From a virus (lineage: Duplodnaviria > Caudoviricetes), in IMG/VR virus record IMGVR_UViG_3300032038_000070, positions 3,399 through 67,398 of that record: a stretch of 64,000 bases of DNA, one strand, 5' to 3'. Position 1 is the first letter of the stretch. Each line of letters starts with the position of its first letter. The notes beneath the pieces are model-generated. The model was not told the origin of the DNA, searched no databases, and saw only the letters and a list, made by a program, of their open reading frames with translations. Shown piece after piece: positions 1 to 64,000 of this stretch. The translations under genes were made by a program, and so were the position numbers.

Positions 1-2
1 TT

Positions 3-299
3 GTTGGGTATCTTGTTGGTCATGATCACCAAGACAACATCTGGGATGCAGAAAATGACGGTACTCAGTTAATGTATTGCATTACCTGTGCGGCAGTAAC
101 ACAAACAGCACAGTGGAATAAATCTGACCAATTTAGGGATGCGTTCCATGACGCATACAACATTCTCACCATTGATACCGCAAATACGCTTGTAAAAATT
201 ATCCGTGGCGGTGGGGCAGATATTGATGACCACATGAGAACACGCAAGGCTATTTGCTTCAACTATTCAACTGGGCAGATGGTCGGTGAGGTTCTTTAA
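3..299 (+). CDS. 3' end of a gene truncated by the window start; calcineurin-like metallophosphoesterase C-terminus
   Basis: Frame open from base 3: VGYLVGHDHQDNIW... contains the GHxH metallophosphoesterase motif; lies just upstream of the lysis module. Confidence 0.55.
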   Translation, partial: VGYLVGHDHQDNIWDAENDGTQLMYCITCAAVTQTAQWNKSDQFRDAFHDAYNILTIDTANTLVKIIRGGGADIDDHMRTRKAICFNYSTGQMVGEVL

Positions 300-421
300 A
301 TAACACAATCGGAAATGTTGCCGTAACTATGGGCGGTGTAGATATAACATCGACTGCATATGCAAACGGGAAAATTTCTATTCCGGCTATTACTGGAAAT
401 ATTGTAATAACGGAAAGCTGA
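296..421 (+). pseudogene. Start-less 41-aa tail-protein-like cassette (LNNTIGNVAVTMGGVDITSTAYANGKISIPAITGNIVITES*)
   Basis: 42 codons in frame from the TTAAATAACAC site to TGA; no RBS or start codon at its 5' end; beta-rich tail-repeat-like sequence. Confidence 0.5.
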
Positions 422-478
422 TTCTATCTTAAATAACACTTTAATTCAGTAACTTAACAGTATTAAAAGCGTCTTTAA
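296..478. repeat. Three TTAAA-N6-(TTTAA) recombination-like sites
   Basis: 296 TTAAA-TAACAC-AATCG; 429 TTAAA-TAACAC-TTTAA; 463 TTAAA-AGCGTC-TTTAA. Confidence 0.55.
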
Positions 479-521
479 CGCTGTAACTACAAAGCCCAGA
501 GGAGCAGAATATAATGGAATT

Positions 522-547
522 GGGAGCGGCTTCGGTCGCTCCCTTTT
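522..547 (+). terminator. Rho-independent terminator before the holin
   Basis: GGGAGCGGC-TTCG-GTCGCTCCC-TTTT. Confidence 0.75.
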
Positions 548-564
548 AATTACAAGGAGGGCAT

Positions 565-981
565 ATGCGAGCAGCATTATGTACAACTATTGGAGTAATT
601 GGAAGCGGCATTGCCGCGTTGTTTGGAGGATGGGACGTGTCGCTTCAGTGCCTTCTCTGGTTCATGGCGATCGACTACATCAGCGGTCTGATCGTTGCCG
701 GAGTATTCAAAAAATCAAATAAGACAGATGCAGGAGGCCTCGAGAGCCGCGCAGGATTCAAGGGCCTTTGCCGGAAGGCAGCAGTGCTCGCCCTCGTTCT
801 GATGGCTCATTATTTGGATATGGTCGTCGGGACGGCCTTCGCAAGAGACGCGGTGTGCATCGGCTTTATCGTGAACGAGGGACTGTCAATACTTGAGAAT
901 GTTGGGCTAATGGGTATCACGTACCCGGCAGCGATCAGAAAAGCACTCGATGTATTGAGTCAGAGAGCGGAGGAAGAATGA
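565..981 (+). CDS. Phage holin (family 4 / TcdE-like)
   Basis: GGWD...L..M.IDYISGLI...GF.GL.RK motif, hydrophobic segments, AAGGAGG RBS, upstream of the lysin. Confidence 0.9.
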   Translation: MRAALCTTIGVIGSGIAALFGGWDVSLQCLLWFMAIDYISGLIVAGVFKKSNKTDAGGLESRAGFKGLCRKAAVLALVLMAHYLDMVVGTAFARDAVCIGFIVNEGLSILENVGLMGITYPAAIRKALDVLSQRAEEE

Positions 982-1143
982 TGGCATACGTGTGGCTCAC
1001 ATTTTTCTTTGTCGTGATATTATTTTTCGGAATCGGCACGGACTAGGAGGCGTTATGCGCTGGATCAAAGATACACTGATCGGGATTGGAGCGCTGATTC
1101 TTCTGGCGGTGCTCCTGGTAGTGTTTCGAGATATGGAGGACAC

Positions 1144-1902
1144 ATGGCTGTAGTTAGATTAGCTCAGGCTTCGCATGATGAGCGGGGCACTTATCATGGA
1201 GGAGCTGCCGGAGACCAGACCGGCGACGAATTGAATATCCGAACATGGTATAACCGGCCATGGGATACAGTCCTTCGCGCCAAGGATAAAAACTTCGGGA
1301 TTCTGCTCGCACAGATTGCGCAGATCCTCGTCAAATGCGTTCTGATCGGCTATGACCAGTACGAGAGGACGACGCTGTACGACCAGTGCGAGCTGATCGG
1401 GTGGAACATCAACCGAATCAACGAAATTAAGCCGTGTGAATGTGACTGCAGCAGTCTGGTCGCGGTCATCCTGCGCTTCTGCGGGATCAGCGTCTCCAAG
1501 AGCATTAACACGTCCCTGATGACGTCCGCACTGCAGAAGACCGGCCTCTTTGAGGTCCTCCGGGATCCTAAATACCTGACCAGCGGAGACTATCTCCGGA
1601 AGGGAGACATCGTGCTTAATACCTGGCACCATGTCGCCGTATGCCTTGACAATGGAGGCAAAACGGCGGAGACCTTCACACCGTACCTCGCGACTGTATC
1701 CGTCCAGACGCATCTCAAGGTCCGCACGGGACCGGGGACAAACTATCCGGAGTTTATGGTCTACGGAGGGGACGGAACCTGGACACCTTGGCGGTTCCCT
1801 CCGGCTGCGCTGGTCGTGATCGTAGAAGAGCGATCCGGCTGGGGCAGGGTCGGCAACACGATCGGCTGGGTGTCCCTTGCTTTCACGACAAAATCACAAT
1901 GA
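1144..1902 (+). CDS. Endolysin A (Cys/His amidase-peptidase domain plus SH3-like cell-wall binding domain)
   Basis: CECDCSSL and HHVAV catalytic motifs; C-terminal LKVRTGPGT...GWVSL; homologous to 35264..35998. Confidence 0.85.
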   Translation: MAVVRLAQASHDERGTYHGGAAGDQTGDELNIRTWYNRPWDTVLRAKDKNFGILLAQIAQILVKCVLIGYDQYERTTLYDQCELIGWNINRINEIKPCECDCSSLVAVILRFCGISVSKSINTSLMTSALQKTGLFEVLRDPKYLTSGDYLRKGDIVLNTWHHVAVCLDNGGKTAETFTPYLATVSVQTHLKVRTGPGTNYPEFMVYGGDGTWTPWRFPPAALVVIVEERSGWGRVGNTIGWVSLAFTTKSQ

Positions 1903-3423
1903 TGGACGCGTCCGTCGTGGTTTTGGGACCCGCGCTATTACCCCCGGCGCGGGTCCTTTTTTACGTTTAAAACAGACGACGATCAGGCCATCAAGGACGA
2001 CTGCTCCCGTGTTCGCGTACGATCTCGCCTTTTCCACTATGAGCGCCGTACGCGAACACCGCGTCGGCGCTTTTTCTGTCGTGTTGTAAAGGACAGTGAT
2101 GTCCTCATCAGACACGACTACATCAGCCACAAACGCATCCAGGAGCTTCCGGCGGAAGTCCGGATCCGTCACGTCTCCCGCGCGGAAAGACTGCAGCCAT
2201 CCGCGGATCAGGTCCTCCGGGATCACGGTCTGATTCAGCTTTTCCTTCTGCAGATCCACTTCGGCGCCGGCGATCTCATCCTCCAGCTCGTGGAGCCGCC
2301 CGATCATAGAGCTCGCGCCTTCCTCGATCGCTCTCGACACATTATCCCTGCGCCTGTGCAGATCTGCCAGATGCTTCTCTAGCATCTCTTCCTCGGATCC
2401 CTTTTTCTGGTCCTGCTGGATCGTCATGATCCGTCCGACCAGCTTCTCGATCATTTCATCCGTCAGGACATCTGCAGCAGTGTGCTGCACGACCAGATCC
2501 TCCAGCTCTTCCCGTCCAATCTGTTTGATGTCATTCCCCGGGCATCTGTAATATGTATATTTCTTCCCGGACTTTCCCGTCCCGGTCATACCGTTGAGCA
2601 TCTTCCCGCATTTTCCGCAGTGACATTTACAGCTTAATAAGTAGCACACCCTCGCCCTCCCTGCCGCGTTGCGGCTCGTGTGAAAGTTTTTATTCGCATC
2701 CGCGAACAATTCCTCTGTGACGATCGGCTCGGCGTCGATCCGGATCCCGTGGACTTCAAAGCGCCCGAGGTATCTCTCGTTGTGCAGGATCCGGTGCAAG
2801 GTGGCGTTCGGCGCGTTGATGCCGTAGCGCTCCAGAATGGCCCGTTTTTCGTCCAGGGTGGCGCCAGCGGCCTGCGCCTGGAACAACTTACGGACAGCAG
2901 GCGCACGCTCAGGATCGACCTGTATGGTGCCGTCTTCGGCGCGCATGTATCCGATCGGGAGCTTTCCCATCGGCAGCCGTCCCTTTTTCGCGCTTTCCTT
3001 CTGCCCGCGGATGATCTTCTGGCGCAGGTCGGCAGAGTAGTATTCCGCGAGGCCTTCCATCAGGCTCTCCAGCAGGATCCCTTCCGGACCTTCCGGAATC
3101 GACTCGCGCGCGTACATCAGCGTGACGCCTGCACGCCGCAGCCGGATCTTATTTACAGCGATGTCCTCTCGGGACCTGCCAAAGCGGTCGATCTTCCACA
3201 CGATGACACAGTCAAACAGGCCGCGATCCGCGTCCTTCATCATCCGCTGGAACTCGTCCCGGCCATCTACGCTCTTTCCTGAGACGTGCCGGTCCGCGTA
3301 CAGCCCGATCACGTCTATGCCCTTTTGCCGCGCGAAGGCCGTGCAGTCGGTCACCTGTCCCTCGATAGACTGGTCCGTCTGCCGCGGGCCTTCACTGTAT
3401 CTTGCGTATATCACGCCTCTCAT
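1894..3423 (-). CDS. int: Large serine recombinase (integrase of phage A)
   Basis: N-terminal YARYS catalytic motif, DRFGR, recombinase domain, zinc ribbon (CKCHCGKCG...YYRC), coiled coil; start overlaps the repressor stop. Confidence 0.95.
   Translation of the reverse strand: MRGVIYARYSEGPRQTDQSIEGQVTDCTAFARQKGIDVIGLYADRHVSGKSVDGRDEFQRMMKDADRGLFDCVIVWKIDRFGRSREDIAVNKIRLRRAGVTLMYARESIPEGPEGILLESLMEGLAEYYSADLRQKIIRGQKESAKKGRLPMGKLPIGYMRAEDGTIQVDPERAPAVRKLFQAQAAGATLDEKRAILERYGINAPNATLHRILHNERYLGRFEVHGIRIDAEPIVTEELFADANKNFHTSRNAAGRARVCYLLSCKCHCGKCGKMLNGMTGTGKSGKKYTYYRCPGNDIKQIGREELEDLVVQHTAADVLTDEMIEKLVGRIMTIQQDQKKGSEEEMLEKHLADLHRRRDNVSRAIEEGASSMIGRLHELEDEIAGAEVDLQKEKLNQTVIPEDLIRGWLQSFRAGDVTDPDFRRKLLDAFVADVVVSDEDITVLYNTTEKAPTRCSRTALIVEKARSYANTGAVVLDGLIVVCFKRKKGPAPGVIARVPKPRRTRPSL
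1926..1962 (+). terminator. Terminator of the lysis operon (inside the 3' end of the convergent integrase)
   Basis: GGACCCGCGC...GCGCGGGTCC-TTTTTT. Confidence 0.75.
2009..2059. other. Putative attP of the serine integrase (13-bp inverted arms)
   Basis: GTGTTCGCGTACG (2009-2021) and CGTACGCGAACAC (2047-2059) are perfect inverted repeats 25 bp apart; ~50 bp total, as typical for serine-integrase attP. Confidence 0.6.
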
Positions 3424-3773
3424 CTGATGCCTAACCTCCGAAGTACATCAATTTGTGTTTCCGCATCCGCTGAACGGAACGCAGTCAGGAGGGCGAACTC
3501 TTTCGGACTGAGCCGGTTCCCGAGATCAGCCAGGTCATTATCATAGCTTCTGGCAGGTTCTTTGCGTGCGTTTGTCATTCCGAGTAAATAATCAGAAGAC
3601 ACGCCAAAGAAATCCGCGATCCTGCGAATGGCTTCCAGATCGGGCTCCCTTCGGCCCTGCTCATACATACCAATCGCGCTCCGAGAAGTGCCGAGGCCTT
3701 TCGCGAGAGCATCCTGAGAAAGCTCCTTTTCCTGTCTGAGGCTCATGAGTCGGTTTGCAAATGTTTTTTCCAT
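3420..3773 (-). CDS. XRE-family HTH repressor (CI-like, no peptidase domain)
   Basis: LSQDALAKGLGTSRSAIGMYEQGRREP HTH; divergent from the early operon. Confidence 0.9.
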   Translation of the reverse strand: MEKTFANRLMSLRQEKELSQDALAKGLGTSRSAIGMYEQGRREPDLEAIRRIADFFGVSSDYLLGMTNARKEPARSYDNDLADLGNRLSPKEFALLTAFRSADAETQIDVLRRLGIR

Positions 3774-3796
3774 GATATTATCCTCCTTCGATAAGT

Positions 3797-3884
3797 ATAC
3801 ACGAATTGTGAAGAAAAAGACACAAAATGTGTTGACACGTAACGTGGCATGGTGTACTATGTAGACCTAGACACAATATGTGTC
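3797..3884 (+). promoter_or_regulatory. Phage A switch: sigma-A promoter with GACAC-N5-GTGTC operators
   Basis: TTGACA 3832-3837, 17 bp, TACTAT 3855-3860; operators at 3819, 3834 and 3870 (the last perfect: GACACAATATGTGTC). Confidence 0.8.
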
Positions 3885-3910
3885 AACGCAGAGATAAGGA
3901 GGACAGGAAG

Positions 3911-4342
3911 ATGGCAACAAAGGAAGAAGAACTGAAAGCACTGGAGCAGATCAGGAAGATCGTCGAAGGACTCGGCGAGGACAGCTACATCGGGATAGCA
4001 TTCGAGGGATGCCTCGACGACGCGGAAGAAAATATCCGGAACGACTTCGCGCTCAGTATGAACGGGCGCTGGCAGGACGCAGAACAGAAGGTTGAGCGGC
4101 TCAATGCAGAGCTGATCCTCGAAAGGGCCAATAACGATAAACTCCGGAAGAGGGTGGAAGAGGCCGAGGAAACGGCCCGGCAGAAGAGCGAAAAAGTTAT
4201 CGAGTATCACAACGACATGGTCGAAAATTGGAACAAGTTCCGGGAGCAGGAAGACAAAGCGGATGCGATGGAGCAGGAGATCATCAAGCTGAAGGCTAAG
4301 CTGTACGACATGATGATGGAACGGGAGGAAGCAAAGGCATGA
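3911..4342 (+). CDS. Early coiled-coil hypothetical protein
   Basis: RBS AAGGAGG; first gene of the early operon. Confidence 0.7.
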   Translation: MATKEEELKALEQIRKIVEGLGEDSYIGIAFEGCLDDAEENIRNDFALSMNGRWQDAEQKVERLNAELILERANNDKLRKRVEEAEETARQKSEKVIEYHNDMVENWNKFREQEDKADAMEQEIIKLKAKLYDMMMEREEAKA

Positions 4343-4527
4343 CCAACGCAAGGAAACAGGCTCACATGAGCGTTATAACATGGATCATCGCATCGTGCTT
4401 GTCTGGCGCAAGCGTCAAGGATCTACTGGCCACCGCAGAAGAACTCTATGAAGAGGGAAGCATGACAAGGGCAGAGTACCGGATCGCGATCTATATGCTC
4501 TCCCAGATAAAGGAGGTAGTGGGATGA
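4339..4527 (+). CDS. Early hypothetical protein, homologue of 38902..39087
   Basis: AEELYEEGSMTRAEYRIAIY versus AERLYEAGVMSRAAYRIAIY. Confidence 0.7.
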   Translation: MTNARKQAHMSVITWIIASCLSGASVKDLLATAEELYEEGSMTRAEYRIAIYMLSQIKEVVG

Positions 4528-4778
4528 GAGCAAACGAGACTATGGCGGCCTTTATGGACGAACAGGACGCGATCCATGACCGCGAGATCTTCGTCCACAA
4601 TCTGGGATGGCTGCTCTCGCAGACCCGCGACGGGGTGCTGGGATGCGATCTTATCAACGCGGAACAGCCCGACGAGTTCGTGCTAGTCACGTACAAGGGC
4701 GGAGGCACACGGATGATCAACACATACATGGACAGCTACGCGGCGATCATCCGGGACGTCGCGAAACGGTTCCAGTAA
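4524..4778 (+). CDS. Early hypothetical protein
   Basis: ATGA overlap, RBS AAGGAGG. Confidence 0.65.
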   Translation: MRANETMAAFMDEQDAIHDREIFVHNLGWLLSQTRDGVLGCDLINAEQPDEFVLVTYKGGGTRMINTYMDSYAAIIRDVAKRFQ

Positions 4779-4790
4779 GGAGGGACAGAC

Positions 4791-5090
4791 GTGAAGAAGG
4801 GTGACGTAATCCAGTGCCTGGATAAAAAGGATCTGCAGCGGACCATGAAGGACTTATCTGCTGCAGGGTTCCACGCCGTGAAGGACAGCGGCCAGAACTT
4901 CAATGTCGTCATCACCGGAGTTCCGGCGACAGGGTACATGGTAGCGGCCGCTGACCAGAACGGGCGAAGGCAGAATGCCTACTGCGACACTCTGGAAGAG
5001 GCAGAAGAAATCGCGGCAGAATACGGCGGCCAGTACGAGTTTGTGGAGATCCTGGAAGGATATCCGGGAGAATGGAAGGAAAGGAGGTGA
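4791..5090 (+). CDS. Early hypothetical protein
   Basis: RBS AAGGAGG, GTG start, operon spacing. Confidence 0.65.
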   Translation: MKKGDVIQCLDKKDLQRTMKDLSAAGFHAVKDSGQNFNVVITGVPATGYMVAAADQNGRRQNAYCDTLEEAEEIAAEYGGQYEFVEILEGYPGEWKERR

Positions 5091-5095
5091 GGCAT

Positions 5096-5302
5096 ATGGA
5101 TGCTAAGAGGATCGGCAGAAGACTAAGGGAGCTGCGCGGAGTTTTTCGCACGCAGGACGAAGTGGCGAATGCAATCGGTATCGACAGATCAGCTCTGTCA
5201 AGGTACGAAAACGGCGACGCAATTCCCTCTGATTCTGTTAAGATCGCGATCGCCACTTACTATGGAACTACAGTGGGCGAAATTTTTTTTGCTGAAGAAT
5301 GA
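5096..5302 (+). CDS. Cro-like XRE HTH protein
   Basis: TQDEVANAIGIDRSALSRYENGDAIP. Confidence 0.85.
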   Translation: MDAKRIGRRLRELRGVFRTQDEVANAIGIDRSALSRYENGDAIPSDSVKIAIATYYGTTVGEIFFAEE

Positions 5303-5315
5303 CACGATATGTGTC
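5301..5315. promoter_or_regulatory. Additional GACAC-N5-GTGTC operator
   Basis: GACACGATATGTGTC immediately after the cro stop. Confidence 0.65.
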
Positions 5316-5421
5316 AGAAGAGGATCAAAACATGGATGAACAGCTAAACGCTCTTGCCCTGGCCGCCCTTGAGGCGATCAGAAAACACATAGAGGAAACC
5401 AAAGAAGAAAGGAGGAAATAG

Positions 5422-5577
5422 ATGAGAACACTGCAGAAACTGATCTGCCTGATCGGGATTCTATGCTTCTGCCTCGGCGGAAGTTCGATGGACAGCAAGA
5501 ACCTGCTGATCCCGGCGGCGCTCACCATCGGCGGCGGCCTGCTGGCACTCGCCACGTATCACGCTTATGAATTGTAA
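5422..5577 (+). CDS. Small membrane protein (homologue of 42211..42363)
   Basis: Two hydrophobic stretches around GGSSMDS..LLIPA. Confidence 0.6.
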   Translation: MRTLQKLICLIGILCFCLGGSSMDSKNLLIPAALTIGGGLLALATYHAYEL

Positions 5578-5759
5578 GGAGGAAAGAAGATGAGCAAGTT
5601 GAACCAAAGTTTTGCAAACCACTATGTAACGATCGCGACGCTCCTGGAAGAGCAGTCGAAGCTCTTGGAAAGCGACACGAAGCACCGGGAAGCCCGCGAG
5701 GTAATGAAGGAAGGCGCACGCTGCCTGAAGGAGTGCGCAGTCAGATTGGAGGAAGAAGC

Positions 5760-6200
5760 ATGAAGATCACAGTTGAGTTCGACGGCATGGAAGAGTTCCA
5801 GAAGTACATAACATTTGGAAACGAAATCAAAATAACCGACGAAGGGATAGTCGTCAGGCCGAGCCACGTTCTTCCCGGACAGAGTTTGGAAGAAAGGACA
5901 AACGCGGATATAAAGGCAGATGAGGTCGCTGCAGGTACCGAAAAACCCGCCGAAAAAGCTCAGGAAGAGCCTGCAGAGGAAAAGACAGAGGATTCCGCAC
6001 CCTTCGAGGAAAAGCCCAAAATCGACGAATCCTACCGCCTTGAGGTACGCAGAAAGCTCGCAGCACTGAATAAGCTGGAGACAGGGAACCCGGCAAAGAA
6101 GCTGATCGCGGAGACCGGATACAAGCGCCTGACGGATGTCCCGCTGGATCTCCTGCCGGGGCTGATGGAGAAGGCAGAGGAGGCAATGAACAATGTCTAG
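5760..6200 (+). CDS. Hypothetical protein preceding DUF2800
   Basis: RBS GGAGG; acidic linker and helical C-terminus; coupled to the next gene. Confidence 0.7.
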   Translation: MKITVEFDGMEEFQKYITFGNEIKITDEGIVVRPSHVLPGQSLEERTNADIKADEVAAGTEKPAEKAQEEPAEEKTEDSAPFEEKPKIDESYRLEVRRKLAALNKLETGNPAKKLIAETGYKRLTDVPLDLLPGLMEKAEEAMNNV

Positions 6201-7356
6201 GACACACGCAAAGCTCTCGCCATCCGCGGCGGAGAGGTGGATCCATTGCCCCGGCTCGATCAGGCTCTCGGAGCAGTGCCCGCCAGCGCCGTCCAGTGAC
6301 TACGCCGACGAGGGAACTGCAGCGCACAGGCTCGCGGAACTGAAAGTCGAATGCGGTCTTGTCCCGATCGGAGATCCGAAGCTCACGCAGGACTTCGAGA
6401 CGGCCCGCGCTTCGCAGTACTACTGCGGCGAAATGGAAGAAGCAACAGAGTTCTACGCGGACCGGGTGCAGGAGATCTACGCGAAGGCCCTGCAGAAGGA
6501 TCCGTCAGCGGAGCTGATGGTCGAGCAGCACTTCTCCCTAGAGGACTGGATCCCGGGCGGCTTTGGCACCTCGGACGCAGTCGTGATCGGCGACGGAGTA
6601 ATCGAGGTGATCGACCTGAAATACGGCAAGGGCGTCAAGGTGGACGCCGTGGGGAATCCGCAGCTGCGGCTGTATGGCCTCGGCGCGGCGATGCTCTTCG
6701 GCGACATTTACGACTTGAATACAGTCCGGATGACGATCATCCAGCCGCGGCTCGACCATATCAGCACGGAAGAGATGCCGCTCATGGATCTGTTCAAATG
6801 GGCGGAAACGGTCGTCGCTCCGGCTGCGAAAGAGGCGGCAGGCGAGAAGGGTCACACCGAGAGTGGCGACTGGTGCCGCTGGTGCCCGGCAAAAGCAGTC
6901 TGCAGGACACGGGCGGAGAAGCAGCTGGAGCTCGCAGAATACGATTTCTGGGATCCGAACCTGCTGCGACCTGACGAGATAGGCGACATCCTCACCAAGG
7001 CGGAAGAGCTGCAGCGGTGGGCGTCAGATGTGCAGGAGTACGCACTGCAGGAAGCACTCGCCGGCCAGCACTACGACGGCTGGAAGCTCGTCGAGGGTAG
7101 GAGCGTCCGGAAGTACGCGGACGACCTGAAGGTCGCCGAGACACTGCAGGCGGCAGGATGGCCAGAGGCAGCGCTGTACGAACGCAAGCTCTATGGCATC
7201 ACGGCGATGGAGAAGATCGTCGGGAAGAAGAAGCTGACGGAGGTCCTCGGGGATCTGATCGTCAAGCCGGCGGGAAAGCCGGTGCTGGTCCCGGAGTCGG
7301 ATAAGAGGGAAGCAATCAACACAACGGAAGCGGCAAGAGCCGACTTCGCGGATTAA
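6193..7356 (+). CDS. DUF2800 PD-(D/E)XK (Cas4-like) exonuclease
   Basis: HAKLSPS.A.RW..CPGS, GFGTSD, IDLKYGKG, NPQLRLY, G.WCRWC. Confidence 0.9.
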   Translation: MSRTHAKLSPSAAERWIHCPGSIRLSEQCPPAPSSDYADEGTAAHRLAELKVECGLVPIGDPKLTQDFETARASQYYCGEMEEATEFYADRVQEIYAKALQKDPSAELMVEQHFSLEDWIPGGFGTSDAVVIGDGVIEVIDLKYGKGVKVDAVGNPQLRLYGLGAAMLFGDIYDLNTVRMTIIQPRLDHISTEEMPLMDLFKWAETVVAPAAKEAAGEKGHTESGDWCRWCPAKAVCRTRAEKQLELAEYDFWDPNLLRPDEIGDILTKAEELQRWASDVQEYALQEALAGQHYDGWKLVEGRSVRKYADDLKVAETLQAAGWPEAALYERKLYGITAMEKIVGKKKLTEVLGDLIVKPAGKPVLVPESDKREAINTTEAARADFAD

Positions 7357-7371
7357 GGAGGAATTAGAACT

Positions 7372-7917
7372 ATGGCAACAAAGGTTATCACAGGAAAAGT
7401 CAGATTCAGCTATGTGAACATTTTCAGAAGCAGATCCTTCCAGGATGGGCAGGATGCGAAGTACAGCATCTGCCTGTTGATCCCCAAGAGCGATAAGGCC
7501 TGTATCGCAAAGATCCGGAAGGCAATTGACGCAGAAATCGAAGAGGGCATCGCGTCGAAGTGGGGCGGGAAGAAGCCGAAGAACCTGAAGCTCCCGCTGC
7601 GCGATGGCGACGAGGAGAGAGCAGACGAGGCACCTGAGTATGAGGATATGTATTTCCTGAATGCGAACAGCGACACGAAGCCGGGCGTCGTCGACAAGGA
7701 TCTGAACGAGATCTTGGATCCGGACGAAGTCTACTCCGGCTGCTGGGGCCGTGCGAGCATTAACTTCTTCCCTTATGACAGAAAAGGGAATCGCGGTATC
7801 GGTGTAGGCCTGAACCACATCCAGAAGCTCAAGGACGGCGAGCGCCTCGGCGCTGCCCGTGCGGCTGCAGAAGACGACTTCGGCGACGGATTCAAGGATG
7901 ACGAGGAGGACTTCTGA
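7372..7917 (+). CDS. DUF2815 phage ssDNA-binding protein
   Basis: VRFSYVNIF, KYSICLLIPK, LPLRDGD, VYSGCWGRASIN, acidic tail. Confidence 0.9.
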   Translation: MATKVITGKVRFSYVNIFRSRSFQDGQDAKYSICLLIPKSDKACIAKIRKAIDAEIEEGIASKWGGKKPKNLKLPLRDGDEERADEAPEYEDMYFLNANSDTKPGVVDKDLNEILDPDEVYSGCWGRASINFFPYDRKGNRGIGVGLNHIQKLKDGERLGAARAAAEDDFGDGFKDDEEDF

Positions 7918-7918
7918 G

Positions 7919-10251: not shown

Positions 10252-10255
10252 GAAT

Positions 10256-13276: not shown

Positions 13277-13281
13277 GGCAT

Positions 13282-49096: not shown

Positions 49097-49177
49097 GTAT
49101 CATCCGATGTTCCACCATTATAACCCCTTAAGCCCCGAGGTACTTTGTTGCCCCGGGGTGATTTGTTTGGAGAGACA

Positions 49178-52498: not shown

Positions 52499-52501
52499 GA
52501 A

Positions 52502-55715: not shown

Positions 55716-57328
55716 TGGCTATTTTTGAGAGGATAAGAAAAATCATGCAGGATACGTTGCAGAGGATTGGCACAGCGTCGGGTGTATCGAAAGAGTTCAA
55801 GGACATCTTCGAGATTACAGGAGTACCGGCATACAGGGAGTTCTACAACATCAGCATTCTTCCATGGAAGTACCTGTACAAAGGCTTCTACAAGCCGTGG
55901 CACTTCATCCCGGCACCTACGATTGCAGACCCGAACAATCACAGGAACATGGCCTACCTCAGCCTCGCCAAGGCCGTCTGCGCAGAGATCGCAGGAATGG
56001 TCTGGACAGACCAGTGCGAAGTGGATGTCTCGATGGAGGGAAATCAGAGCGAGGAAGACCCTCTGGACGAGTTCGTGAACATGGTGCTGAAGAAGAACAA
56101 CTTCAACACAGCGATGATCGAGGCAATCGAGAAGGCAGCAGCCCTCGGAGGCGAAGCACTCAAGGTCTGGTACGAGGTACGCAGAGATGCGGAAGGAAAC
56201 GAGGTACCCGACAGCGGCAGGATTCGCATCGGCTTCGCAATGGCAGACCAGTTTGTGCCGGTCTCTTGGGATAACGCAGGAGTGAACGAGGGTATCTTCG
56301 TTACGAGGACAGCGCGAGGAGGATACTACTACACGCTTCTGGAATATCAGCTCTGGGACGGACTTACCTACGTCATCCGCAACGAGCTGTACCGGGCAGA
56401 CAAAGCACAGGCATCCGGAGAAGCGCAGGACATCCTCGGGTACAGGTATCCGCTTGACGCACTTTACCCGCACCTCGACGAGGAGACCCGGATAGAGACG
56501 GAGTACAGCCTGTTCAGCTACTTCCGAACACCGGTCGCCAACAACGTAGACGACAACAGCCCTCTCGGAGTTAGCATCTACGGAAATGCTCTTGAGACGC
56601 TTCACGCGATCGACATTTGCTTCGACAGCTTCGTCCGGGAGTTTAGGCTCGGCAAGAAGAGAATCATCGTACCGGCCAGAATGATCCGCAACGTCACAGA
56701 CCCGGTCTCCGGGAAGCAGGTACGTTACTTCGACGCAACGGACGAGACGTACGAAGCACTGAGCACGGATGACCCGGACAGCTTGAAGATACAGGACAAC
56801 AGCGTCGAGCTGCGTGTAGAAGAGCACGTCGCAGCGATGAACGCTTTCCTCAACATCTTCTGCCTTCAGACTGGACTGAGCGCAGGAACATTTTCATTCG
56901 ATGCTCACGACGGGCTGAAGACCGCAACGGAAGTCGTCAGCGAGAACAGCAAGACGTACAAGACCGTCAAAAATTTCCAAGGCCAGATTACGCCGGCAAT
57001 CGAGCACATCGTACACGCGATCATCACAGTGGCTTCCCTGTACGACATGAAGTACGAAGGACGAAGTGTAGCAGAGCTTGCGGCAGGCGGCTACGATGTC
57101 ACCGTGACGCTCGACGACGGAATCACGCAGGACAGGCAGACGAACATCAACGAGGGCATCACGCTCGTAGGAGCAGGCCTCATGAGCAAGTACAAATTCC
57201 TCACAGACCCGAAGTACGGCCAGAACCTCACCGATGAGGATGCTAAGGCCGAGTTACAGAGGATAGCGCAGGAGAGTACAGTCACGATGCCGCAGCTAGA
57301 CGTGCAGGATTTCAATGGCATTGAATAA
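55715..57328 (+). CDS. Portal protein B
   Basis: Homologue of 18487..20100. Confidence 0.92.
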   Translation: MAIFERIRKIMQDTLQRIGTASGVSKEFKDIFEITGVPAYREFYNISILPWKYLYKGFYKPWHFIPAPTIADPNNHRNMAYLSLAKAVCAEIAGMVWTDQCEVDVSMEGNQSEEDPLDEFVNMVLKKNNFNTAMIEAIEKAAALGGEALKVWYEVRRDAEGNEVPDSGRIRIGFAMADQFVPVSWDNAGVNEGIFVTRTARGGYYYTLLEYQLWDGLTYVIRNELYRADKAQASGEAQDILGYRYPLDALYPHLDEETRIETEYSLFSYFRTPVANNVDDNSPLGVSIYGNALETLHAIDICFDSFVREFRLGKKRIIVPARMIRNVTDPVSGKQVRYFDATDETYEALSTDDPDSLKIQDNSVELRVEEHVAAMNAFLNIFCLQTGLSAGTFSFDAHDGLKTATEVVSENSKTYKTVKNFQGQITPAIEHIVHAIITVASLYDMKYEGRSVAELAAGGYDVTVTLDDGITQDRQTNINEGITLVGAGLMSKYKFLTDPKYGQNLTDEDAKAELQRIAQESTVTMPQLDVQDFNGIE

Positions 57329-57416
57329 CCGCCATTTTTGGGATTCCTTCCTTAAGACCTCCTAGCGGAAAGCTGATTAAAGGCGCGTCACAAGCGCCGG
57401 GAGGTTTTCTACAGAC

Positions 57417-58601
57417 ATGGCACAGCTTACACCGAAGGACATACTCGAAATATCGGAGCCGGTAGAAGCGGTTTACCAGAGATGCGTGGACGAGCTTCTC
57501 ATCAACATTGCGAAGCATTTCCGCAAGCCCGGAAACGAGCGTACACGCTATTGGGAAATCAAGAAGCTCAGCGAGCTTGGTGCACTCACGGAGGAATCTG
57601 TGAAGATCATCGCCAAGAACACCGGGATGCTACCGGAGGAGATACAGAAGGCGTTTCTAGAGGTGAGCGAGAAGGCCTGTCTCGACATTGACCCTCAGCT
57701 CAGAGGAGCAGCGGAGAAGGGTATACTGCAAGACCCGGGGACGACACCATCAACGTCTCCGTTGATGCGGAGTATGGTGCAGGCGTATTCAGAGCAGGCT
57801 ATCGACAAGATGAACCTCACGAATACCACGATGCTCGAGAGTACGCGGCAAGCGTACGTGAACGCTGTCGAGAAGGTTGTGAGCGAAGAACAACTGGCTG
57901 AGTCACAGCGTATTCTTGAATCGCAAAGCCTGTCTGTTACGACACATCAAGAAACGAGAGTCCGAGCAATACGGAAGGCTGTTGAGCAGATGAGCAACGC
58001 AGGCCTCACGGGATTTATTGACCGGGCAGGACACAAGTGGCAGCCAGACGCGTACGCAGCGATGGTCGTAAGGACTACGAGCCACAATGCAGCGATACAG
58101 GCGATACGGAACCGGCAGCAGGAGTTTGGAGGAGGAGACCTCTTCCAGATTTCCAGTCACACCGGAGCGAGGCCGCTGTGCGCACCGTACCAAGGGTACT
58201 TCTACACTTGGGGCAACGGTAGCGGAGAGTTTGTAGACGGAGCAGGACACACGCAGCACTACGAGTCCATCTACAGAACGAGCTACGGACAAGCGGCAGG
58301 CATCTTTGGCATTAACTGCGGACACCATCCGATACCGATTATTCCGAGGTACAGCTATCCGCATGACAGAATCGAACAGACCCCGGAAGAGAATGCGAAA
58401 GAGTACGAGGAGAGCCAGATACAGCGGCAGTACGAGCGGAACATCCGTAAGGCGAAGCGAGACGAAGAGATCGCGAAGGTGACCGGGGACAGCGAAGCAG
58501 TGAAGGCCGCGTCAAAGAAGGTACGAGATGAGCAGGCGAAGATGCGCAGCTTCATCAAGGAGACCGGGAGAGCGAGACGCTACGACCGGGAACGTATATA
58601 A
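57417..58601 (+). CDS. MuF-type minor capsid protein, short form (no toxin domain)
   Basis: Aligns to the N-terminus of 20185..22161 and ends at RARRYDRERI. Confidence 0.88.
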   Translation: MAQLTPKDILEISEPVEAVYQRCVDELLINIAKHFRKPGNERTRYWEIKKLSELGALTEESVKIIAKNTGMLPEEIQKAFLEVSEKACLDIDPQLRGAAEKGILQDPGTTPSTSPLMRSMVQAYSEQAIDKMNLTNTTMLESTRQAYVNAVEKVVSEEQLAESQRILESQSLSVTTHQETRVRAIRKAVEQMSNAGLTGFIDRAGHKWQPDAYAAMVVRTTSHNAAIQAIRNRQQEFGGGDLFQISSHTGARPLCAPYQGYFYTWGNGSGEFVDGAGHTQHYESIYRTSYGQAAGIFGINCGHHPIPIIPRYSYPHDRIEQTPEENAKEYEESQIQRQYERNIRKAKRDEEIAKVTGDSEAVKAASKKVRDEQAKMRSFIKETGRARRYDRERI

Positions 58602-58611
58602 GGAGGCAGAT

Positions 58612-58963
58612 ATGGAATGCAATCACCCGGAGGCTTACGTCTCCATCATGGGAAGATACCGTGTCTGTAACCTGTGCGGAGCCAAGCTCCCTCTGGTACA
58701 GGCAGCAGAAAAGAAGCCGGTGAAGACCGAGCCGAAGAAGGGAGCAAAAGCCAATGCCAGAAAATAATGAAAAAGATAGAGAGGCGTGGGAGGTCAGTGA
58801 CATGATCCGAAGCGCCGGCGGCATCGTCGAGACCGCACTGAGAGCGGAGGACGAAGCAAGCCGAAAAGCACTGCGAGACGCAGCGAAGACGATCTTGCAG
58901 CAGGCAATCGCCCGAATGGACGAGAGCGTCGGAGCAAGCGACGCAGATGAAGACGATGAATGA
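58612..58963 (+). CDS. Small zinc-finger-like ORF (58612..58767) and conserved acidic ORF (58754..58963)
   Basis: Homologues of 22257..22626. Confidence 0.7.
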
Positions 58964-59064
58964 GCACCTAACAAGGTGCTTTTTTCATACCCAAAAATAC
59001 GCGAGCACCGGTCGTTACGGGGTGCAATTCGCTAATCGTCAATAGCGTAAAAGGAGGACGTAAA

Positions 59065-59538
59065 ATGGCATTTTCGAGAAAGTTTTTACTGGACAATGGA
59101 GTACCGGAGGACAAGATAGACGCAATCCTCGCAGAGCGAAACAGGACGCTGTCAGACTACATTCCGAAGGCAGACGTACAGGCTCAGATCGACGAGGCGC
59201 TTAAGAACGCTAAGCCGCAGGAAGTCGACGTTAAGACCACACCGGAGTATCTGGCTCTTGCCGGGGAGAACGCGAAGCTGAAAGCCTTCCAAGGGGATGA
59301 CTTCTCTTCTGTCAAAGCTCCGTACCGGGACATTGTGTGGGAAAAGCTCGACCATGCTGAGAAGCATACACCGTACACAGAACAGATCGCAGAGCTTGCA
59401 AAGACTATGCCAGACCTGTTCGTAACACCAACAGAAGAACCTCAGAAACCTAGCTTCGGAGCAGCTCCACAGGGAGCAGCGCCTACAGGCCAGAAGGGTG
59501 AATCCTTCGGAGATATCTGGGGGTTCGGCAAAAAATAG
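59065..59538 (+). CDS. Scaffolding protein B
   Basis: Homologue of 22733..23215. Confidence 0.75.
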   Translation: MAFSRKFLLDNGVPEDKIDAILAERNRTLSDYIPKADVQAQIDEALKNAKPQEVDVKTTPEYLALAGENAKLKAFQGDDFSSVKAPYRDIVWEKLDHAEKHTPYTEQIAELAKTMPDLFVTPTEEPQKPSFGAAPQGAAPTGQKGESFGDIWGFGKK

Positions 59539-59550
59539 GAGGACTAAATT

Positions 59551-60453
59551 ATGCCTTTCGTACAGCAGTCTATTAACTACGCAGTTCAGTACGGCAGAGA
59601 GCTCGCAAACGCTTATCCGTACCTTTCCTACTTCGGCGAAATCTGGGGCTCCCAGAACAGCCAGAGATTCAGACCCATCAACGCGAACAGCATCATGATC
59701 CCTTCCATGGAGGTCTCCGGTGCGAAGGCCGTCGACAGAGACAATCTGAACGGTGTCTTCACCAGAAACTTCAACCTCTCTTGGGAGCCGAAGGTCATGT
59801 CCATGTATCGCGAGTGGAGCACCATCCTCGACGAGATGGACATCGTTGAGACCAACGAGGTCGCAACAATCGCGAACATCACAAGAACATTCAACGAGTT
59901 CCAGAAGATCCCGGAGATGGATGCCTACATGGCTTCCAAGCTCGGCGCGTTCGCGACAGCCGCAACCACAGTGGATACCACTGCCCTCACGGCAGCGAAC
60001 ATCCTCTCCAAGTGGGATGACTATCTTGAGGCAATGACCAACGCTCGCGTCAACCGCGACAGAGTTATCTGCTACGTCACACCGGCAACATACAAGCTCC
60101 TCAAGCAGGCAGCAGGAATCACCAGATTCCTTGAGGTCTCCAACGGCATCCAGAATGTCGACCGCAACATCGCCAAGCTTGATGGAGTCGTCATCAAGGA
60201 AGTTCCGAGCGATCTCATGCAGAGCGCGTACAACTTCGCAGATGGATTCGTTGCTACCGCAGCCGCGAAGCAGATCAACATGATCATGGTCGACCCTCTC
60301 GCAGTCATCGCCCCGGTTGTGTACGAGGTCTCCATGATCTCCGCTCCGAGCGCCGCTACCAAGGGCAAGAACGTGTACTACGAGAGCTACTACTACGATG
60401 TCTTCAACCTCACACAGAGGACAGCAGGCATCAGAGCGAACATCGCTGCGTAA
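59551..60453 (+). CDS. Major capsid protein B
   Basis: Homologue of 23227..24129. Confidence 0.9.
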   Translation: MPFVQQSINYAVQYGRELANAYPYLSYFGEIWGSQNSQRFRPINANSIMIPSMEVSGAKAVDRDNLNGVFTRNFNLSWEPKVMSMYREWSTILDEMDIVETNEVATIANITRTFNEFQKIPEMDAYMASKLGAFATAATTVDTTALTAANILSKWDDYLEAMTNARVNRDRVICYVTPATYKLLKQAAGITRFLEVSNGIQNVDRNIAKLDGVVIKEVPSDLMQSAYNFADGFVATAAAKQINMIMVDPLAVIAPVVYEVSMISAPSAATKGKNVYYESYYYDVFNLTQRTAGIRANIAA

Positions 60454-60468
60454 ACGAGGAGGTAAGCC

Positions 60469-62046
60469 GTGGCACTGGTAACCTTAGAGTATTACACAAA
60501 CACATACATCGGGGAGCCGGTTGCCACGGCTGACTTTCCGAGATTCGACGCAAGGGCTGAGGACTTAGTCCTCGGCCTTATCAATATTACCGAAGAGGGA
60601 TTCGAGGAGCTTTCTGCCGCTAACCAGACGGCAGTACAGAAGGCTATCTGTGCGCAGATAGAATACTTCCAAGAGTACGGAATAGGAGTTGCGAGCTTCG
60701 GCAAGGAGGCCGGTGGCGGCTTTACAGTCGGCAAGGTCTCTGTCAACGAGGGAAGCAGCAGCGGAGGCATCGGAGCACGATCCATGATCTGCCCGGCAGT
60801 CTACGTGTACCTTGAACGGACAGGGCTTCTCAACCCTTCGGTATCTACGGCACCGGAGCCGTGGCCTTACGTCTGGGGGTGGTTCTGATGGCACTAGCAC
60901 CGATTCCTGCCCGGATGCTGCACGACACAGCAGTCTTCCATGTTGTGACAGGTATGGACAGGTACCAGAAGAAAACCTACGAAGACTACACCGTAAGCCA
61001 TGTACATCTCCAGTCCTCGAATGAGACCCGGAAGACAGGTACAGACGAGGAGGTGCTGCTCAGAGGGATTCTGTTCGTAGACGCGAGGAAGAGCACACCG
61101 GTGCTCGACCTGTATGCGCTACAGAACAGCTCGCTCGCAGCAGGAGACACCATGAGAGTCACCGTATACGACGCAAGCGGTACGGAGACAGGAGAGTACG
61201 CTGTGCTTGCTGTTGACGATCTTCCAGACGTTCCTGCGACACGGAGACATCACTGGGAGCTTGGACTGGTATGAGCGTAATCGTAAAGACAGACAGACAA
61301 AAGTGGATAGACGCGATCAACAACGCGAAGGAGACAGCAGCATACGCTCTTGCAGAGCAGATGCTCGCAGACAGCGAGAGTTTCGTTCCGCACAGCGGAG
61401 GATCCTCTCAGTCGGCAGGAAACCTGCGTGAATCTGGAACGGTTGTCAAAGGTGAGAGCGGCAGATTCTACTTGGTTTGGGACACGGTTTATGCCTTGTA
61501 CCAGTGGTTCGGGGTACGTGCTGACGGTTCCCACAAGGTACACCATTACACGACACCGGGAACAGGTACACAGTGGGTCGATAAGGCGAAAGCCAGATAC
61601 TCCGACCGGTGGAGAGACATTGCTCAGAAGAAGTTTACGGAGGGATTGAAGTGAACGTGTTCGACACACTCATGGAGGCCGTCGCGACGATGGCAGAGGA
61701 AACAGCGCCATACGCGTCGATTGTGTTTGGCTCCGATCCACCGGAGAACGGAATCTGCATGATGCGGAACGCAGGATACCCGGACGAGACGCATCTCAAC
61801 AAGGGATTCATGTTTCGGATGCCGGTACTGCTCAACGGGAAGCACAGCGAGCAGCAAACAGTGCTGAACGCACTGGAAGCAATACATACGACGCTTACAA
61901 AAGCGACGGATTACTCAGAGCTCAACAACGACGAGATTCAAGTCGTGAACATTGAAACGACAGCTTTTCCATCCATTATCGGGAGGGAGCAGAACAATCA
62001 GTGGATTTGCGGATCGTCGTTTGAGATCAGCTTTTATTGGAGGTAA
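60469..62046 (+). CDS. Four head-tail joining genes (60469..60888, 60888..61274, 61271..61654, 61651..62046)
   Basis: One-to-one homologues of 24147..25747. Confidence 0.78.
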
Positions 62047-62049
62047 GAA

Positions 62050-62541
62050 ATGCCTACAGCAGCAGACATCAAGAACTACACAAAGCCCGAAGTCGCTCCG
62101 CTGTATTCCTACAGCGCAGAGATCGACACTACGCCTAGCGCAACGACACCGACATGGGCTACGGTGTGTGCAGGCTTCGAGAACATCACCGAGGCGCTGA
62201 ACGAGACGGTGCAGCAGTACTTCTTCCTTTGCGGAGAAGGATTTGCGGCCAACTACGTCACCGGCATCGCCCCGACGATCACTCTCAGCGGTCGCAGAAT
62301 TTACGGCGACGCAGCGCAGGACTACATCTTCGGAAAGAAGTACGACCTCCTCGCAGCGAGGGATACACACTTCCGCATGAAGAGGACTGACGCAGCCGGT
62401 GAAACGGAGACTGTCATCAGCGCGAACGTCACACTGTGCAACATGACAGACATCAGCGGAGCAGCCAACGAAGGCAGCGCCTGCTCGGTCGAAGTCCGGT
62501 TCAACGGAGCACCGTTCCAAGGGGATGCTTGGGCTTTATGA
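62050..62541 (+). CDS. Major tail tube protein B
   Basis: Homologue of 25751..26242; terminator at 62548-62582. Confidence 0.78.
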   Translation: MPTAADIKNYTKPEVAPLYSYSAEIDTTPSATTPTWATVCAGFENITEALNETVQQYFFLCGEGFAANYVTGIAPTITLSGRRIYGDAAQDYIFGKKYDLLAARDTHFRMKRTDAAGETETVISANVTLCNMTDISGAANEGSACSVEVRFNGAPFQGDAWAL

Positions 62542-62640
62542 CGTAACGCGGAGGGGTACAAGCTCCTCCGCTTTTCTTTTTAACTACGTCATTTTTATTT
62601 TTAATTACGTCATTTCGAAGGAAATGAGTAAGGAGGGAAT

Positions 62641-63605
62641 ATGTACAAGATCAAGAGAAGCAGGCACATCGCTGAGAGCCTTCAGATAGAGGACGGAGAT
62701 AAGTTACTTGACCTTACAGTGGACATCGTAATCGACGACATCATGAAGAAGTACATTGATCTTGGAAGCCGGTTGGCAAAGCTACAGGAGATGGTTGACG
62801 CAGGAGAAAAGACTGACGACTTGTACGCCGAGTACGGCAGAACTGTCGTTGCGTACTTCGAGCTTTTCTTCGGTACAGAACAGACCGCGAAGATCATGGA
62901 GCTGTACAGCGGCAGATACAGCGAGATGCTCGTCGACATCACACCGTTCTTACAGGACGTTGTAGTCCCGGAAATCATCAAGGCACAGGAAGAGACGAAG
63001 AACAAGTACAGAGCACTGGCGAAGAGAAGGTACAGATGAAACCTTACGAGCGGCTTCCAGAGACAGTGACGTACAACGGAAAAAGATACCGCCTTGATAT
63101 GTCTTACGTCGCGTTTTTTGCTGTCTCAGAACTGATGCAGGACAAATCCCTACTGGATTACGTGAAAGTGTCTGGCGCTCTCGAAATACTTGTTAAAGGC
63201 AGGCATCCGGTAGACCCGGGACTGCTTACAGCGATCTACGACCTCATCAAGGAGGAGAGACCGCGCACCGGAACAGACCAAAAGCTGATGGACATCGGAC
63301 AGGACTGGCACTACATCTGCGCAGCCTTTCAGCAGGCCTACGGAATCAATCTGTACAGAGACCGGAAGATGCACATACTGCGGTTCCGGGCATTGCTACA
63401 GGCACTACCGAAGGATACCCGGATGTCAGAGATCGTCGGAATACGAGCAGCGAAGATTCCTGCTCCGACGAAGTACAACAGGGAACAAATAGCCGAGCTA
63501 ACACGGCTCAAGGCTCAGTACGCGCTGAGGGGCAGCGAGGAATCATTACAAGACGGCTTCGCCAAGCTGTTTGCATTACTTGAAGCGAGGGCAAAAAATG
63601 TCTGA
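62641..63605 (+). CDS. Tail chaperone (62641..63039) and Gp15-like protein (63036..63605)
   Basis: Homologues of 26301..27265. Confidence 0.8.
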
Positions 63606-64000
63606 CGTTGGAAGCGTAAAATACCAAGTCGAGCTAGACGACAGTCATCTCGACCAAAACATATCGAAAACTGAATCCGACATATCCTCCAAACTTGGTT
63701 CCATCAGCAGCACACTGAACAAGCAGTTTGGTTACCAGATATTCAAGGACGTTGGCGGTGCTGTCGTAGAGGCCGGGAAGGCAATGGTCGGCTTCGCAGC
63801 AGACTCAGTACAGACCGGGCAGACCTTCGACAAGAGCATGGCACAGGTCGCCGCCACAATGGGGCTGACCGTCGACGAGATTGGAGAGCTGCGCGACTTC
63901 GCACAGGAGATGGGCGCGTCCACAGCGTTCTCCGCGTCACAGGCAGCGGATGCGCTGAATTACATGGCTCTCGCCGGGTACGACGCAGAGACAGCCATGA
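63598..64000 (+). CDS. Tape measure protein B, 5' end (truncated by the window)
   Basis: Nearly identical to 27258-27660; 63874-64000 is identical to 27534-27660. Confidence 0.9.
   Translation, partial: MSDVGSVKYQVELDDSHLDQNISKTESDISSKLGSISSTLNKQFGYQIFKDVGGAVVEAGKAMVGFAADSVQTGQTFDKSMAQVAATMGLTVDEIGELRDFAQEMGASTAFSASQAADALNYMALAGYDAETAM

Follow-up and report, generated by a model that had tools for sequence, protein, structure and literature searches.

The window analysed here, a 64,000-nucleotide stretch of an IMG/VR viral record (record positions 3399-67398), contains the modules of two related temperate siphoviruses, as an earlier note on this DNA had proposed: both module sets could be recognised, each with its own integrase (Table 1). 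Base 64000 of the window is also the final base of the 67,398-bp record, and upstream of the window lie 3,398 further bases of the first phage, phage A, which extend to record base 1. The entry is labelled 'linear' and is scored as 100% complete. No recognisable host gene is present in the window, in agreement with the same note; many ORFs are without a family match.

Table 1. Features of the window, in window coordinates; single numbers are start positions.
Feature	Position (strand)	Remarks
Phage A, incomplete fragment of a serine-integrase temperate siphovirus	1..27533 (+)	30.9 kb counted from record base 1
Phage A holin	565-981 (+)	lysis cassette 565..1902
Phage A endolysin	1144-1902 (+)	lysis cassette 565..1902
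Phage A large serine recombinase	1894..3423 (-)	Pfam and PHROG matches
Phage A other modules		replication module; TerS/TerL/portal/MCP/MTP; TMP start 27258
Tape measure ORF as written, 748 aa	27258..29504 (+)	first 92 codons A-type, rest after the 127-mer B-type
127-mer, copy 1	27534..27660 (+)	inside the tape measure gene
Phage B, closed circle of 36,340 bp	27534..63873 (+)	repeat offset and full gene set
Phage B Dit	29465	
Phage B Tal	30209	
Phage B fibre	33104	
Phage B endolysin	35177..35998 (+)	ELLD domain and weak SH3_3 match
Element of ~215 nt, three copies	36056-, 36279- and 52499-52710	first two in tandem, 36056..36490 (+)
Phage B attP	36526..36772 (+)	tRNA-type core and arm-type repeats
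Phage B tyrosine integrase	36715..37800 (-)	PF00589 36.6 bits (cut-off 27.1); phrog_1 1.4e-43
Phage B CI	37778-38395 (-)	
Phage B early genes, then packaging, head and tail genes		TerS 53972, TerL, portal, MCP, MTP, TMP 5' end from 63598
Phage B own tape measure 5' end	63598..64000 (+)	S2, Q10, H17, N21, Q75
127-mer, copy 2	63874..64000 (+)	reaches the record's last base

With regard to phage A, the large serine recombinase matched Resolvase (PF00239, 101.5 bits), Recombinase (PF07508, 28.2 bits) and phrog_95 (5.4e-87), and its zinc ribbon (PF13408, Zn_ribbon_recom) scored 24.8 bits, just below the Pfam cut-off of 25.3. The serine-type attP described in the earlier note was not confirmed: short inverted repeats are found near and inside the 3' end of this gene (2009-2059, 1926-1956 and 1896-1921), and no mark singles out any inverted repeat at 1896-2059 as an attP or, without an attB for comparison, sets it apart from chance. 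The distal tail genes, lysis cassette and integrase of phage A lie at the opposite end of the record from the 127-base repeat described below, and the gene content of the record includes no tape measure 3' end, Dit or Tal belonging to phage A itself.

Phage B follows the order TMP, Dit, Tal, fibre, lysis, attP, tyrosine integrase, CI, early genes, packaging, head and tail. Its attP is intact and of the tyrosine type, as had been claimed: the core (36593-36614), which resembles the T-arm and acceptor 3' strand of a tRNA or tmRNA, occurs once in the window, no tRNA gene was found there, and five of the six window copies of TTGCAACAYG flank the core on either side (36526-36772), against 0.23 copies expected by chance. 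A repeated element of about 200 bp had been said to be shared by the tail region and phage B. The copies do exist, but the first two are located directly after the endolysin gene of phage B, outside the tail genes. This ~215-nt element matched no Rfam family at gathering score, and its consensus fold, derived from three copies, is weak.

The two phages meet within the tape measure gene, at a repeat that is exact over its whole length, as had been noted before: the identical run traced back from base 64000 is 127 nucleotides long, and the base preceding it differs. Elsewhere between the structural modules of A and B, which are homologous throughout and 72.6-74.4% identical at the nucleotide level, the longest exact run is 41 nt. 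The offset between the two copies, 36,340 nt, corresponds to a canonical temperate phage circle size, in keeping with the IMG/VR contigs that carry a related portal, none of which exceeds 39.2 kb, and when the 5' end of the tape measure gene of phage B (63598-64000) is read on into 27661-29504, an open frame of 748 aa runs across the closure. The stretch that follows the first copy cannot be the tail of phage A itself, because it runs up to a second lysis cassette that is immediately followed by the integrase of phage B. No copy of the first 127 nt of the record was detected in the tail of phage B by self-BLAST, and a 60-mer taken from the repeat had no exact match among the JGI metagenome contigs.

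A further marker of the transition was provided by four 5-mers (CCAGC, CCWGG, CCTGA and GGWCC), which were picked solely by comparing phage B proper (36001-63500) with phage A. These motifs occur at 309 sites in phage A, or one per 99 nt, with a largest gap of 1,371 nt and a last site at 27432. None is found in 27433-31438, and only three in all of 27433-64000 (36.6 kb); the tape measure ORF past the 127-mer is free of them. In 27661-36000, which had played no part in the choice of the motifs, one site was counted against about 53 expected under a Markov model. The depletion of CCWGG described in the earlier note was borne out, with 72 sites in phage A, the last at 26591, and only two thereafter (36299 and 50731); for the tail at 29505-36000 there are none, compared with 8.5 (Markov) or 12.2 (zero-order) expected. 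The four motifs thus support the assignment of the 27.7-36 kb tail to phage B rather than to A, which that note had based partly on CCWGG, more strongly than CCWGG alone. According to this fingerprint, the switch from A to B falls between 27436, where the last motif site ends, and 27660, the end of the repeat.

The same signatures were observed in related contigs. L007, an independent contig in which the tail-lysis-integrase-CI order of phage B recurs (66-87% nucleotide identity), has a single site of the four motifs in 20.9 kb, and the density is 10.7-12.4 per kb in three A-like contigs with a serine integrase (L008, L013 and L016). The opposite signatures of A and B argue for different restriction regimes, although they do not prove different hosts. 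GC content was rejected as a marker of the two phages, since the tail and lysis part of phage A itself has 45% GC, which is below that of phage B.

When compared with 50,697 phage records, the portal reached at best 41% amino acid identity, with Bacillus phages, and no close cultured relative was found. In IMG/VR, the first ORF of phage A matched two loci and the Tal of phage B ten (best 81%), while the N-terminal 400 aa of the tape measure protein matched 53 loci with a best identity of 67%, and no near-identical tape measure gene was found in that database. Seven loci in GTDB genomes matched the tape measure protein, with a best identity of 50% aa in genomes of Clostridia/Eubacteriales, and one match in the protein database carries the JGI name TP901 family tape measure protein. 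Among JGI metagenome contigs, the first ORF of phage A had two matching loci, one of which is contig L004. This contig is 86-94% identical to record positions 1-1900 and was considered as a stand-in for the missing part of phage A; it was rejected, given that its upstream genes are Baseplate_J and Mu Gp48-like and unrelated to the TMP, Dit and Tal of the window. None of the relatives accessible in IMG/VR, GTDB or the JGI metagenome contigs was close enough to reveal the tape measure 3' end of phage A itself.

The similarity between the two phages is not uniform along the structural genes. Identity rises from 70-83% in the neighbouring genes to 88-93% at the start of the tape measure gene, and then to 100%. 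Before the repeat, the two tape measure 5' parts are 91% identical, with 25 differences in 276 nt; eight of these differences lie inside five motif sites that are kept by A and absent from B, which is partly by construction. Given the contrast between 91% and the 70-83% of the neighbouring genes, it looks, at the sequence level, as though the tape measure gene was exchanged between the A and B lineages in the past, with a boundary at the gene start, and has since diverged. The suggestion that tail-module swapping had been captured in progress is therefore not upheld, as 91% identity before the repeat resembles an older, diverged exchange.

The source sequence was looked for in the 24 runs listed for 24000-31000; 20 of these contain part of it, and the share of sampled words stays below one half in every run (best 0.37). 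The four runs compared (X1, X4, X19 and X5) yielded only short Logan contigs of relatives, which are 90-99% identical. Two of these contigs span the repeat, both A-like on the left and window-like on the right: record 23 of run X4 (26467-27938; 48 differences in 1,472) and record 13 of run X19 (27085-27808; 21 differences in 724). In run X5, an A-like contig is 98.3% identical to the window up to 27541, and the contigs past the repeat are 90-93% identical to it. A further contig of run X5, at a depth of 2.7, links 23821 with 37656 through 22 letters of other sequence. At 28082-28157, the variant bases of the relatives create no motif sites. The bridging contigs of X4 and X19 indicate that tape measure bodies much like this one do naturally carry A-type 5' ends. 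P0127 indicates the same at the protein level, as the sole relative with an A-type N-terminus, being 94.1% identical over the tape measure part that follows the repeat. For this reason, A and B may truly share more than 127 nt, and the assembler's wrong turn may be located further downstream.

According to the description of the JGI metagenome workflow (bioRxiv 10.1101/2020.09.30.320929), assembly is carried out by metaSPAdes with k = 33, 55, 77, 99 and 127. The record was presumably made in this way, as suggested by its membership in IMG/VR. We consider that it most probably represents an assembly join, a lariat-shaped path through a de Bruijn graph, rather than one molecule or a natural hybrid. 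The sample would have held two related temperate siphoviruses whose tape measure genes share at least 127 exact bases. At k = 127, such a stretch would form a single vertex with two incoming edges, namely the tape measure 5' ends of A and of B. The path would have entered along A, passed the vertex and taken the outgoing edge of B round its circular or circularly permuted genome, and would have halted on re-entry to the vertex, so that the 127-mer was written again at the end of the contig. The tape measure 3' end, Dit and Tal of phage A itself would then have been left unplaced by the assembly. We infer that the graph had this shape and that an A-type continuation of the tape measure gene exists separately; the sequence itself contains a complete phage B, an incomplete phage A and an abrupt change of motif avoidance at the 127-mer. 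The label 'linear' and the score of 100% completeness are explained by the position of the other repeat copy, which is internal instead of at the other contig end.

Of the three models offered in the earlier note, the evidence favours a join made in assembly through the repeat over a heterodimeric circle or a hybrid lysogen. An identity that is exact over 127 nt and placed at the record's end is what one k = 127 vertex written twice would produce, which favours an assembly join over a crossover. A real cointegrate of A and B, either a heterodimeric circle or a fused prophage that arose through homologous recombination between their tape measure genes, would yield the same graph as two circles sharing the 127-mer if the assembler were unable to traverse the repeat a second time; the turn from A to B was in any case the assembler's choice, and flanks that are 91% identical are a plausible substrate for recombination. 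We nevertheless regard a cointegrate as very improbable. Phage A would have to be broken a second time, given that the 127-mer is absent from the start of the record and that at least the distal genes mentioned above are missing, and the opposite restriction-avoidance signatures point to different hosts or host strains. A molecule of at least 67 kb could not be packaged, judging from the IMG/VR contigs with a portal related to that of phage B (51 loci, 37-80% aa identity), all of which are at most 39,191 nt long. Moreover, the attP of phage B is unrecombined, with a single core, and host DNA is absent. Chimeric paths at shared repeats are also a common outcome of assembly.

An unlikely, though less remote, alternative is that phage A truly carries a tape measure 3' part derived from B. 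The visible junction at 27534 would then be the left edge of a recent recombination and a true breakpoint, and the contig would still be chimeric, with the false turn into B located past this junction, at a point such as Dit or Tal where the two genomes part once more. The stepwise climb in identity up to the repeat fits such an exchange, as do the bridging contigs with an A-like left side from other samples and the combination of N-terminus and body seen in P0127; metaSPAdes also merges near-identical strain variants. Against this, the length of the 127-nt run is set by the end of the contig and does not bear on whether the shared tract is longer, the A-like relative in run X5 falls from 98.3% to 90-93% past the repeat, and B-type N-termini are found on all four of the full-length tape measure proteins that best match the part after the repeat (96.9-97.4% aa). 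A second shared vertex is likewise not visible in the record, whose first 127 nt are not repeated in the tail of B.

If the assembly join is accepted, the record would be better split into a complete, circular phage of 36,340 bp (27534-63873) and a partial phage of 30.9 kb. Lariat contigs can be flagged simply by a second copy of their terminal k-mer inside the contig, and the restriction-site-avoidance fingerprint may help to spot chimeric viral contigs elsewhere. The likeness of the tape measure genes in the two lineages represents ordinary phage mosaicism. A cointegrate, if true, would instead be a tail-module swap caught before its resolution, between phages adapted to different restriction landscapes.

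In gene content and order, both phages resemble the temperate siphoviruses of Bacillota, with a TP901-family TMP, a Gp15-like chaperone, Dit/Tal and a lysis-attP-integrase junction; they differ from them in their distance, as the best identities of the portal (41% aa) and of the TMP (50% aa) illustrate. The exchange of tail modules between related phages is a form of modular evolution, known as Hendrix-type mosaicism. The tape measure genes of A and B, being far more alike than the neighbouring structural genes, conform to this pattern, except that the exchange would here be old enough for 25 differences to have accumulated in 276 nt and would not be an event in progress. With regard to the assembly, the closest parallel is found in the circular k-mer overlaps of SPAdes and metaSPAdes contigs and in chimeric paths through repeats that co-occurring relatives share; the record resembles these in its exact repeat of 127 nt, the largest k of the JGI workflow, at the contig end and in its loop of genome size. 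In the present record, by contrast, the second copy is internal, because 30.9 kb of a different phage stand before the loop.

This analysis indicated that the record is probably a lariat path, in which an incomplete phage A, a serine-integrase temperate siphovirus (record start to window position 27533), is joined to a complete circular phage B with a tyrosine integrase (27534-63873) through a shared vertex of at least 127 nt. The window covers bases 3399-67398 of the 67,398-bp IMG/VR virus record, which is annotated as linear with a CheckV completeness of 100%; window base 64000 is therefore the record's final base, and 3,398 further bases lie upstream. Positions 27534-27660 and 63874-64000, inside the tape measure gene (TMP), align without mismatch at an offset of 36,340 nt. 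Read backwards from base 64000, the two copies first differ at the 128th base, giving an exact run of 127, in agreement with the earlier note, which had described the two tape measure copies as perfectly identical over this length. The second-longest exact run between the A and B structural modules is 41 nt, and these modules are 72.6-74.4% identical overall. Identity rises from 70-83% over 26700-27239 to 88-93% over 27240-27539, which includes the tape measure start at 27258, and to 100% in the repeat. In the 276 nt of the TMP gene 5' of the repeat, 25 bases and five residues (from A to B: P2S, K10Q, Q17H, D21N and V75Q) separate the two phages.

In metaSPAdes-type assemblies, a self-closing path ends in a copy of its starting k-mer. 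Here, the second k-mer copy is internal, with a 30.9-kb stem (phage A) before the loop 27534-63873. The path would run from the stem through the shared 127-nt vertex and round the B loop, after which the repeat would be written again. The TMP 5' ends of A and B are both in frame with the body, and the contig ORF and the circle-closing ORF are both open (748 aa). According to the Assembly section of its description, the JGI metagenome workflow uses metaSPAdes with k = 33, 55, 77, 99 and 127 (bioRxiv 10.1101/2020.09.30.320929). We infer that such an assembler produced this record and that the repeat is tied to its largest k. None of the 51 IMG/VR contigs whose portal shares 37-80% identity with the B portal exceeds 39,191 nt, and many are 30-39 kb; contigs found through the tape measure reach 78.3 kb, but with TMP identities of at most 62%. 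An A-like contig carrying loci L008 and L016 measures 34,648 nt. Judging from the coordinates of related contigs, phage A would be missing about 3.5 kb (TMP body, Dit and Tal).

With regard to the ownership of the 27.7-36 kb region, the distal tail genes, lysis cassette and integrase of phage A are found at the opposite end of the record. The post-repeat stretch terminates in a second lysis cassette, immediately ahead of the B integrase; the independent contig L007, 66-87% identical at the nucleotide level, also runs from the Tal C-terminus through lysis to integrase/CI, as in B. Of the CCWGG sites, 72 are in A and two in the remainder. A comparison of every 4- to 6-mer across three separate sets (B proper, 36001-63500; A proper; the tail) showed that CCAGC/GCTGG, CCTGA/TCAGG and GGWCC are avoided in B to the same degree, so that B lacks all four motifs almost entirely; GATC and CCCGC are also partly depleted there. 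Phage A has these motifs at expected levels, and its low-GC tail part (record 1-5292) shows no depletion, with 6 CCWGG sites vs 6.7 expected. Up to 27432 the four motifs occur 309 times (one per 99 nt, largest gap 1,371 nt), whereas 27433-31438 contains none, 27661-36000 one against about 53 expected (Markov), and the 36.6 kb of 27433-64000 three. The counts on either side thus place the A-to-B switch between 27436 and 27660, at the repeat, and the CCWGG depletion that the earlier note had seen the tail share with B rather than A is upheld. Five motif sites present in A and absent in B (27258-27436) take up 8 of the 25 TMP differences, an overlap partly by construction since B lacks the sites; this is consistent with purging of sites by B's lineage after it gained the TMP gene. 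Independent IMG/VR contigs are similarly poor in the four motifs (the B-like L007, 1 in 20.9 kb; L005, 2 in 14.4 kb; L037, 3 in 16.7 kb; L102, 0 in 6.5 kb), and the A-like L008, L013 and L016 (serine-integrase homologue) hold 10.7-12.4 sites per kb. The recurrence of B-type avoidance in these contigs hints that a host lineage has several restriction systems to match.

The same type of artefact could have arisen from a truly longer tract shared by A and B, with the wrong turn further downstream, which we consider unlikely. Contigs with A-like left sides bridge the repeat in two public runs, X4 (26467-27938, 48 differences in 1,472) and X19 (27085-27808, 21 in 724), as this explanation would have it. 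An A-like contig from run X5 matches the window at 98.3% as far as 27541, and the post-repeat pieces in that run match at 92.9%, 90% and 90.6%. As these runs are metagenomes, their contigs are not assignable to a single phage, and the Logan evidence weighs little in either direction. The aligned Logan contigs are relatives at 90-99% identity from gut and bovine-gut metagenomes, and in none of the public runs listed for 24000-31000 were half or more of the sampled words present. One X5 contig, at depth 2.7, links 23821 to 37656 via 22 other letters. In the protein database, the 90% cluster of the window TMP includes eight Logan members and P0124 (JGI/IMG, the 67,398-nt record), with further relatives outside. 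Among nine full-length TMPs (seven cluster members, P0002 and P0003), the four nearest to the post-repeat part (P0128, P0121, P0122 and P0123; 96.9-97.4%) all have a B-type N-terminus, as expected if the body came from B. P0127, at 94.1% over that part, is the only one with a clearly A-type N-terminus and shows, at the protein-sequence level, that such N-termini occur naturally on similar bodies; P0002 and P0003 are further off (83% and 78%).

The earlier note had offered a heterodimeric circle, a hybrid lysogen or an assembly join. The join is favored by the 127-nt run to the record end and by the motif switch on the repeat. A real A::B cointegrate is very improbable: A would have to be broken at one more, unexplained point, phages of opposite restriction-avoidance signature would have to occupy one cell, and the molecule could not be packaged. 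The claim that both attP sites are intact stands for B only: its tRNA/tmRNA-like core (T-arm and acceptor 3' strand) occurs once in the window, and five of the six window copies of TTGCAACAYG lie around it (0.23 expected by chance), so this attP looks unrecombined. The candidate region of A has short inverted repeats only. Gene annotation revealed no recognisable host gene across the 64 kb, as had been proposed, and no tRNA gene.

Features of the two phages (window positions unless stated)
Feature	Position	Strand
A: two large proteins without family match, 451 aa (5'-open) and 745 aa		
A: holin	565-981	
A: endolysin	1144-1902	
A: large serine recombinase	1894-3423	-
A: repressor, exonuclease, Gp2.5-like SSB, DNA polymerase, primase-helicase, SNF2-type helicase		
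A: TerS, TerL, portal		
A: minor capsid protein 2	20185-22161	+
A: MCP, adaptors, MTP, Gp15-like protein, then tape measure start		
Post-repeat: tape measure body, Dit, Tal, fibre with S74 chaperone domain		
Post-repeat: endolysin	35177-35998	
~215-nt element, two tandem copies	36056-36490	
B: attP core	36593-36614	
B: tyrosine integrase	36715-37800	-
B: CI-like repressor		
B: type II hammerhead ribozyme match	39069-39136	+
B: Gam, Erf, NinB, RusA, SSB, dUTPase		
B: putative modification cluster	49145-52498	+
~215-nt element, third copy	52499-52710	
B: TerS, TerL, portal, MCP, MTP		
B: minor capsid protein 2 homologue, 394 aa	57417-58601	
B: tape measure 5' end	from 63598	

In A, minor capsid protein 2 has a C-terminal ADP-ribosyltransferase domain (aa 451-613, PF03496), which is missing from the B homologue; one X4 contig omits 21356-22246, so this module is absent from some relatives too. 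Record base 1 lies about 10 nt past the start codon of the first A ORF (record 1-1358, L003), at a module boundary. The nearest relative of this ORF, in L004 (1-2264), lies immediately behind genes of a myovirus-type baseplate (Baseplate_J and Mu Gp48-like), although phage A is a siphovirus. The B cluster encodes a kinase-like protein (APH; weak TCAD9), a cytidylyltransferase-like protein, a TET-associated glycosyltransferase (TAGT) and two ParB_N proteins, and could serve in the modification of DNA or sugars; no TET/JBP enzyme was identified. The hammerhead match (49.2 bits vs a Rfam gathering score of 37; E 4.5e-07) separates the lysogeny genes from the divergently oriented early genes. The ~215-nt copies are 75-80% identical and rich in ACAATTT-like words, with no Rfam family and a weak consensus fold; the tandem pair is flanked by the endolysin gene and the attP core, and the third copy is 5' of a 430-aa ORF preceding TerS. 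The nearest cultured phages are distant (Bacillus phages, 41% portal identity), and the nearest genomes with a related TMP belong to Clostridia/Eubacteriales, at no more than 50%.
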